A model generated the notes under the pieces. It was not told where the DNA came from and did no database searches. It saw nothing but the letters and a program-made list of their open reading frames with translations. From Escherichia coli (GTDB taxonomy: Bacteria; Pseudomonadota; Gammaproteobacteria; Enterobacterales; Enterobacteriaceae): a DNA stretch of 64,000 bases. The stretch lies in NCBI RefSeq assembly GCF_003334785.1, contig NZ_QOWV01000006.1; one strand, given 5' to 3'. The translations under genes and the position numbers were made by a program. This document shows positions 3,041 to 4,081 of the stretch, one piece after another; position 1 is the first letter of the stretch, and each line of letters begins with the position of its first letter.

Positions 3041-4081
3041 ATGAAAAAAGTTTTATTACAAAACCATCCTGGGAGCGAGAAGTATTCTTTTAATGGCTGG
3101 GAAATATTTAATAGTAATTTTGAACGGATGATTAAAGAAAATAAGGCCATGCTGCTTTGTAAGTGGGGGTTTTATTTAACATGTGTTGTCGCTGTAATGT
3201 TTGTGTTCGCAGCGATAACATCCAACGGTTTGAATGAAAGAGGCCTGATTACCGCGGGATGCTCTTTTCTTTATCTATTAATTATGATGGGGCTTATTGT
3301 TCGGGCCGGTTTTAAAGCAAAAAAAGAATAACTGCATTATTATCAGGCTAAAGGTATTGAGCCGCTCAGTATCGAGAAGTTACAGGCGCTACAATTGATC
3401 GCACCTTATCGATTCTATCATAAGCAATGGTCTGAAACGCTGGAGTTCTGGCCGCGAAAGCCTGAACCTGGCAAAGATACCTTCCAATATCATGTGCTTC
3501 CTTTTGACTCGATCGATATCATAAGTAAAAGACGCGAGTCTTTAGAGGATCAATGGGGTATCGAAGATAGCGAAAGTTATTGTGCCTTAATGGAGCATTT
3601 TCTTTCTGGCGACCATGGAGCCAATACCTTTAAAGCAAACATGGAGGAAGCCCCAGAGCAGGTTATCGCCTTGTTGAATAAATTTGCTGTTTTTCCCTCA
3701 GACTATATCTCTGATTGCGCTAATCATAGCTCCGGTAAATCCTCGGCGAAGCTAATATGGGCGGCGGAATTATCATGGATGATCTCGATATCAAGCACAG
3801 CTTTTCAAAACGGGACAATTGAAGAAGAACTGGCCTGGCATTATATAATGCTTGCTTCTCGAAAGGCGCACGAGTTGTTCGAAAGCGAAGAAGATTATCA
3901 AAAAAATAGTCAAATGGGATTTCTTTACTGGCATATCTGCTGCTATCGCAGAAAGTTAACGGATGCTGAACTTGAAGCGTGTTATCGTTACGACAAGCAG
4001 TTTTGGGAGCACTACAGTAAGAAATGCCGTTGGCCCATAAGAAATGTTCCGTGGGGAGCATCATCCGTTAAATACTCATAA
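3041..4081 (+). pseudogene. ynjI: ynjI-like inner membrane DUF1266 protein, interrupted by in-frame TAA at 3329..3331 (N-terminal 96 aa with 2 TM helices; C-terminal domain open in same frame 3332..4081)
   Basis: ORFs 2918..3331 and 3395..4081 share one frame; ATG 3041 (MKKVLLQ) has upstream AGGGA Shine-Dalgarno; 3041..4081 is 347 codons, matching the remembered 346-aa YnjI; AT-rich. Confidence 0.6.

Follow-up and report, generated by a model that had tools for sequence, protein, structure and literature searches.

The window, that is, the whole 64,000-nucleotide stretch of Escherichia coli DNA analysed here, carries the ynjI locus on its plus strand, between topB and the convergent gdhA. Directly 3′ of the topB stop codon, a hairpin of 16 pairs followed by a T-run (2950-2988, plus strand) is likely to be the topB terminator. 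On the other side of ynjI, an inverted pair of REP-like units (4102..4181, no strand assigned) separates it from gdhA, with two arms (4102-4125 and 4158-4181) of 24 nt each that are 83% complementary. We take this inverted repeat to be composed of REP units, on the basis of the known E. coli REP consensus. Since gdhA is convergent and no gene lies downstream of ynjI that could be affected, no polar effect of a lesion in ynjI is expected. The topB–ynjI intergenic region (2914..3040, plus strand), which holds the hairpin with its T-run and the ynjI promoter region, is identical to that of K-12, where the ynjI promoter has been mapped to a topB–ynjI intergenic fragment (PMC3950696).

Read from the ATG at 3041 to the TAA that ends at 4081, the ynjI frame (3041..4081, plus strand) comprises 347 codons and contains exactly one internal stop, a premature ochre codon (TAA, 3329..3331) at codon 97. 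An earlier note on this DNA had equated this frame with the 346-aa YnjI of K-12, and the frame count agrees with the length of the K-12 product both in RefSeq and in UniProt (YNJI_ECOLI, 346 aa); the RefSeq annotation of colinear genomes also places ynjI at exactly 3041..4081. The two same-frame open reading frames described in that note, 2918..3331 and 3395..4081, are both present in the mechanical ORF list. From the ATG at 3041, the first of these leaves a residual ORF (3041..3331, plus strand) for an N-terminal stub of 96 aa ending in ...KAKKE. The second (3395..4081, plus strand) has a TTG start and 228 aa in the ynjI frame, and its product is probably not translated. The peptide encoded just after the TAA (LHYYQAKGIEPLSIEKLQALQLIAPYRF...), which had been judged to be sensible protein, is identical to K-12 YnjI. 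The internal TAA is a discrete sequence fact, to which a chance model is not applicable.

K-12 YnjI belongs to the NCBIfam equivalog family NF008480, which it matches over residues 1-346 with 671 bits (curated cut-off, 386), and the conceptual translation of the window differs from it at residue 97 only. The name given to YnjI by this family is 'hypothetical protein'. A Kyte-Doolittle profile with a 19-residue window exceeds 1.6 in two places, centred on aa 45-56 and aa 77-83, which predicts two transmembrane helices at approximately aa 37-61 (3149..3223, plus strand) and aa 68-91 (3242..3313, plus strand), with inferred boundaries; past residue 100 of YnjI, no segment is hydrophobic enough for a helix. 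The proposed 96-aa, two-helix stub ending in KKE is thus borne out in its length, its end and its two hydrophobic segments. The region coding for DUF1266 (PF06889; aa 167-338, 3539..4054, plus strand) is covered by the complete Pfam model (1-175 of 175) with an i-Evalue of 2.9e-25. The stop lies just 3′ of the second helix and entirely 5′ of the DUF1266 region, and Q97* deletes 72% of YnjI, including its sole recognisable domain. Lys and Arg residues number six in residues 1-36, four in residues 92-110 and one in the loop 62-67, and the positive-inside rule would place the N-terminus in the cytoplasm together with the C-terminal domain. A search of PDB sequences with YnjI returned nothing at E up to 1, and no PADLOC defence model matched the protein. 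The literature found on ynjI was limited to its regulation by BglJ–RcsB and H-NS, a mention in a gene list and an IS10 insertion listed in a table.

Separate translation of the DUF1266 region would need a start downstream of the stop, and the view that such a start is lacking is supported by the sequence. Between 3300 and 3420, ATG and GTG are absent from all frames, and the only in-frame starts ahead of DUF1266 are TTG 3395 and GTG 3494. Their Shine-Dalgarno pairing is -2.5 and -0.6 kcal/mol, respectively, against values that are mostly -5 to -12 kcal/mol at the annotated starts of the window, and the search downstream of the stop revealed no convincing restart codon or Shine-Dalgarno sequence. 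Because the only in-frame starts have such weak or absent pairing, the C-terminal part of YnjI is probably not made in meaningful amounts. Traces of longer products would still be expected from basal readthrough of UAA and from weak reinitiation at TTG 3395.

In an alignment with MG1655 (NZ_CP032667.1), codon 97 is CAA (Gln97) in the reference and TAA in the window. The C-to-T change at 3329 is the sole difference in 4287 aligned bases, which include the 3′ end of topB, ynjI and gdhA. The sense codon replaced at 3329..3331 is therefore CAA, the single-base nonsense change suggested by the earlier note is all that separates the window from K-12 over 4.3 kb, and the reference gene does not share the TAA. 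Across all 64 kb, the window and MG1655 differ by 18 substitutions and one indel (99.97% identity), and Q97* alone of the 18 SNPs creates a stop codon. The remaining SNPs are synonymous, intergenic, inside the espL1 pseudogene or, in a few cases, missense (ynjE, celF, katE, btuC and btuD). The indel is an extra A in NZ_CP032667.1, which frameshifts rpmI in that assembly; rpmI of the window (47913-48110) is intact.

Other E. coli genomes also carry this allele. A query of 79 bases centred on the stop was compared with 5426 complete E. coli genomes and matched in 3477 of them. An exact match, which implies TAA, was obtained in seven and no exact match in the other 3470; seven is a lower bound on the number of carriers, since a second SNP within the 79-mer would hide a carrier. 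The frequency of TAA among ynjI-bearing genomes is accordingly at least 0.2%. The carriers are VE-F10 (Vietnam), LR-64-2 (Ecuador, human faeces), JKHS016 (Japan, hospital wastewater), B19374 (Ireland, seawater), PEC399 (South Korea, pig faeces), AST198 (Japan, human) and 364_BP0073 (Cambodia, urine), and their sources span six countries. In all seven, the NCBI PGAP annotation describes ynjI as a pseudogene of a DUF1266 domain-containing protein with an 'internal stop'. At the protein level, the exact 96-aa stub was found on 331 contigs in a collection of 15 billion proteins (NCBI, ENA and Logan), in which the downstream 228-aa ORF was called as a gene on 520 contigs. The codons AAA GAA TAA CTG were confirmed in the DNA of four further assemblies (loci L022-L025).

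A second 96-aa stub, which ends in KKG (P0018, 69 contigs), was considered as a variant of the TAA allele and rejected: its codon 96 is joined to an IS1 end and about 240 bp of ynjI are deleted in its DNA, which identifies it as a separate event.

An in-frame stop within a region colinear with an intact orthologue, a sense codon (CAA) in the close relatives MG1655 and P377, whose ynjI is intact, and a TAA allele that is reproduced across independent assemblies all characterise the locus. The frame is not uninterrupted, as a functional ynjI would require, and the TAA at codon 97 makes this locus a pseudogene of the YnjI family and not a functional member. Among the origins put forward in the earlier note, that of a pseudogene therefore stands, with one correction: the allele is lineage-specific rather than strain-specific, given at least seven genomes from six countries that are all annotated with the internal stop.

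The flanks of the allele point to the history of this lineage. Over 2914-4200, six of the seven carriers match the window base for base, and JKHS016 has an extra SNP at 3252 in ynjI. Six of the seven also have the flanking haplotype of the window, and over up to 50 kb six of the seven show no more than 5-14 differences from it, counted as SNPs and indel columns. The closest fetched carrier is LR-64-2, with four SNPs and one indel in 50 kb. The SNPs are nested: 29771C and 43670G are common to LR-64-2 and the VE-F10 group, and seven SNPs are common to VE-F10, PEC399 and 364_BP0073. This nesting, together with the few differences found in six carriers, fits one ancestral mutation followed by diversification. 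P377, a Brazilian isolate from lettuce, has the haplotype of the window but CAA at codon 97, and so represents the background before the mutation. Two synonymous SNPs, at 15014 (xthA) and 28193 (chbA), are private to the window and unmatched among all genomes fetched, which indicates that the window is a relative of the seven carrier records and not one of them.

The allele also occurs on other flanks. B19374 shows one difference from the window between 1 and approximately 4386 and is divergent thereafter, with 373 differences in 50 kb. In GCA_000352245.1, a stretch of approximately 1.1 kb that contains the TAA matches the window exactly, and the topB and gdhA flanks are divergent. The simplest reading of a TAA on divergent flanks is homologous recombination, which either spread the allele or replaced its flanks. 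A second, independent C-to-T event may instead lie behind the TAA of B19374 or GCA_000352245.1; the site at 3329 is outside any CCWGG Dcm motif, so no known hotspot argument applies to a recurrent C-to-T change.

Several other features were also recorded. The gene chbR (28465-29307, plus strand) has an internal stop in the TAA carriers VE-F10, PEC399 and 364_BP0073. The only chbR SNP that these three have in common relative to the window is a T at 28705, which presumably causes the stop in their subclade. In P377, an IS621 is inserted between chbG and katE, at about window position 31650, the place of an ES036/REP-like element in the window. The type III effector-like gene espL1 (42919-44818, minus strand) is frameshifted in the window, in K-12 and in most carriers, and is annotated as intact in B19374. 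Rfam matches above the gathering score were the Phe leader (48636-48760), the STnc540 sRNA (52601-52759) and two copies of ES036 (CssrF; 31651-31693 and 24505-24547).

Several lines of evidence indicate that ynjI is dispensable. The gene is missing from approximately 35% of the 5426 complete genomes, a presence/absence polymorphism in which the genomes without it (e.g., IAI39) have a topB–gdhA gap of roughly 90 bp. Its GC content is 37-45%, as against 52-58% in the flanks. In K-12, the ynjI promoter is repressed by H-NS/StpA and requires BglJ–RcsB for strong expression (PMC3950696). Among other complete genomes of E. coli, IS1 has inserted in or just 5′ of ynjI at six or more distinct sites: at approximately codons 32, 82, 91, 114 and 193, in the topB–ynjI spacer, and at codon 96 with the deletion of about 240 bp. 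Examples are WEM25, GPEC206-621, 19SZHZ886Rt, w264 and EC24, the last of which carries two IS1 copies at ynjI. The gene has the look of a local target for IS1. The frequency of IS1 disruption is at least about 0.6%, a value that sets 22 such cases among the 40 best-ranked records against the 3506 matching genomes; of the 26 ynjI-bearing rows in a spread sample of the genome collection, none had an interrupted ynjI. In addition, a laboratory-evolved K-12 strain gained an IS10 insertion at ynjI codon 310 (PMC10044804). It is from the patchy presence, the low GC content, the silenced promoter and the IS1 and IS10 insertions, taken together, that dispensability is concluded.

On this evidence, we consider it very probable (about 0.9) that the TAA allele is a natural, lineage-specific, tolerated and recent loss-of-function pseudogene of ynjI. 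A C-to-T transition at 3329 converted codon 97 from CAA (Gln) to the ochre TAA, so that ribosomes starting at ATG 3041 would stop just past the second transmembrane helix. The product would then be at most a 96-residue membrane stub with two helices, and the C-terminal 250 residues, presumably cytoplasmic and comprising the whole of DUF1266, would be lost. The mutation appears to be of natural origin, to have arisen, probably once, in a K-12-like haplotype of phylogroup-A type, and to have been inherited by a small clade that was dispersed globally. Its presence on at least two other flanking haplotypes would most simply be due to homologous recombination. The allele would have been tolerated, and would probably be selectively neutral, as a lesion in a dispensable, normally silenced accessory gene.

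This reading has to be weighed against four others, two of which deny that the allele is natural. The sequencing or assembly error suggested by the earlier note would require a true CAA with the T at 3329 miscalled beside a homopolymer, and the site does sit 3 bases past an A7 run, a context that is error-prone on some platforms. The change is nevertheless a substitution, while homopolymer errors are typically indels, and the allele recurs in seven independent complete assemblies from different laboratories and as a stub on 331 contigs, in carriers whose SNPs form a nested genealogy; these data argue strongly against an error, which is highly improbable. A mutation acquired in a K-12-derived laboratory stock, also raised in that note, deserves equally little credence. 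It would account for the 99.97% identity to MG1655, but 18 SNPs over 64 kb are too many for a K-12 derivative, and the SNPs that distinguish the window from K-12 are present in wild TAA isolates from humans, pigs, wastewater and seawater. The environmental and clinical sources of the carriers are at odds with a laboratory origin. Slighter still is the chance that the TAA is read through or bypassed and that full-length YnjI is made. The base after the stop is a C, which in E. coli counts as a relatively weak fourth-base context. On the other hand, both release factors act on UAA and, to our knowledge, there is no programmed UAA recoding in E. coli. Near the stop, the Rfam search gave no RNA family match and no structured element or recoding signal; the conserved stop with an accompanying signal that would mark a recoding site was not found. 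Relatives have CAA, and a sense codon at this position is the signature of a mutation and not of a conserved recoding site.

It is also conceivable, although unlikely, that the truncation is functional or selected. The loss of YnjI could be advantageous in this lineage or, more widely, in commensal and environmental E. coli of phylogroup A, where nonsense changes, several IS1 hits, deletion and outright lack of ynjI would then reflect repeated, convergent selection; alternatively, the 96-aa two-helix stub could have an activity of its own as a small membrane protein, or a separately translated DUF1266 fragment could be active. Such a role would agree with the persistence of the allele while its clade diversified and spread across the globe, with its presence on two or more flanking haplotypes, and with the independent IS1 disruptions at many sites in ynjI. 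Also on this side, the K-12 proteins YbeU and YbeR, at approximately 235 aa, are DUF1266 proteins too short for the N-terminal region of YnjI. Against this, TAA (at least 0.2%) and IS1 disruption (at least about 0.6%) are both infrequent, as the neutral decay of a silenced gene predicts, and none of the 26 ynjI-bearing rows of the spread sample was interrupted. IS1 prefers AT-rich targets, and the AT-rich ynjI suits this preference. The downstream fragment lacks a credible restart site, and the similarity of YbeU and YbeR to YnjI is not significant. A natural, tolerated pseudogene is thus retained as the explanation of the TAA allele.

The TAA allele of ynjI is ordinary gene decay, and public RefSeq annotation already flags it as a pseudogene. 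For annotation, 'ynjI pseudogene (Gln97 to ochre)' is the proper label of the locus, and its two ORF fragments, which some gene callers do call, should not be listed as separate genes. The allele is a handy neutral marker of a small, globally dispersed E. coli clade. Its carriers are, moreover, natural ynjI knock-outs, which can be of use in finding the function of YnjI or of DUF1266.

The closest known counterpart of the locus is ynjI of K-12 (b1762), which encodes the inner membrane protein YnjI and which matches the window in both its topB–ynjI–gdhA arrangement and its coordinates. The two genes are identical at 1040 of 1041 bases and their promoter regions are identical; they differ in codon 97, which is CAA in K-12 and TAA in the window, where the frame can yield no more than residues 1-96. 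In K-12, DUF1266 is also annotated in YbeU and YbeR, which share with YnjI the RefSeq domain name. At approximately 235 aa, they have no room for the N-terminal region of about 165 residues of YnjI, and in pairwise BLASTP neither YbeU (E = 0.025) nor YbeR (E = 0.054) is significantly similar to it. Unlike ynjI, their genes lie next to hscC, each overlapping the gene of a J-domain co-chaperone (djlC or djlB), a context that serves as a lead, and not as evidence, for the role of the domain lost here. Within the TAA lineage, chbR is intact in the window and carries a nonsense change in the subclade of VE-F10, PEC399 and 364_BP0073. At ynjI itself, the IS1-disrupted alleles and the genomes that lack the gene represent, like the window, natural losses of ynjI, and they differ from it in the route taken: a point nonsense mutation in the window, transposon insertion in the IS1 alleles and absence of the whole gene in genomes of the IAI39 type.
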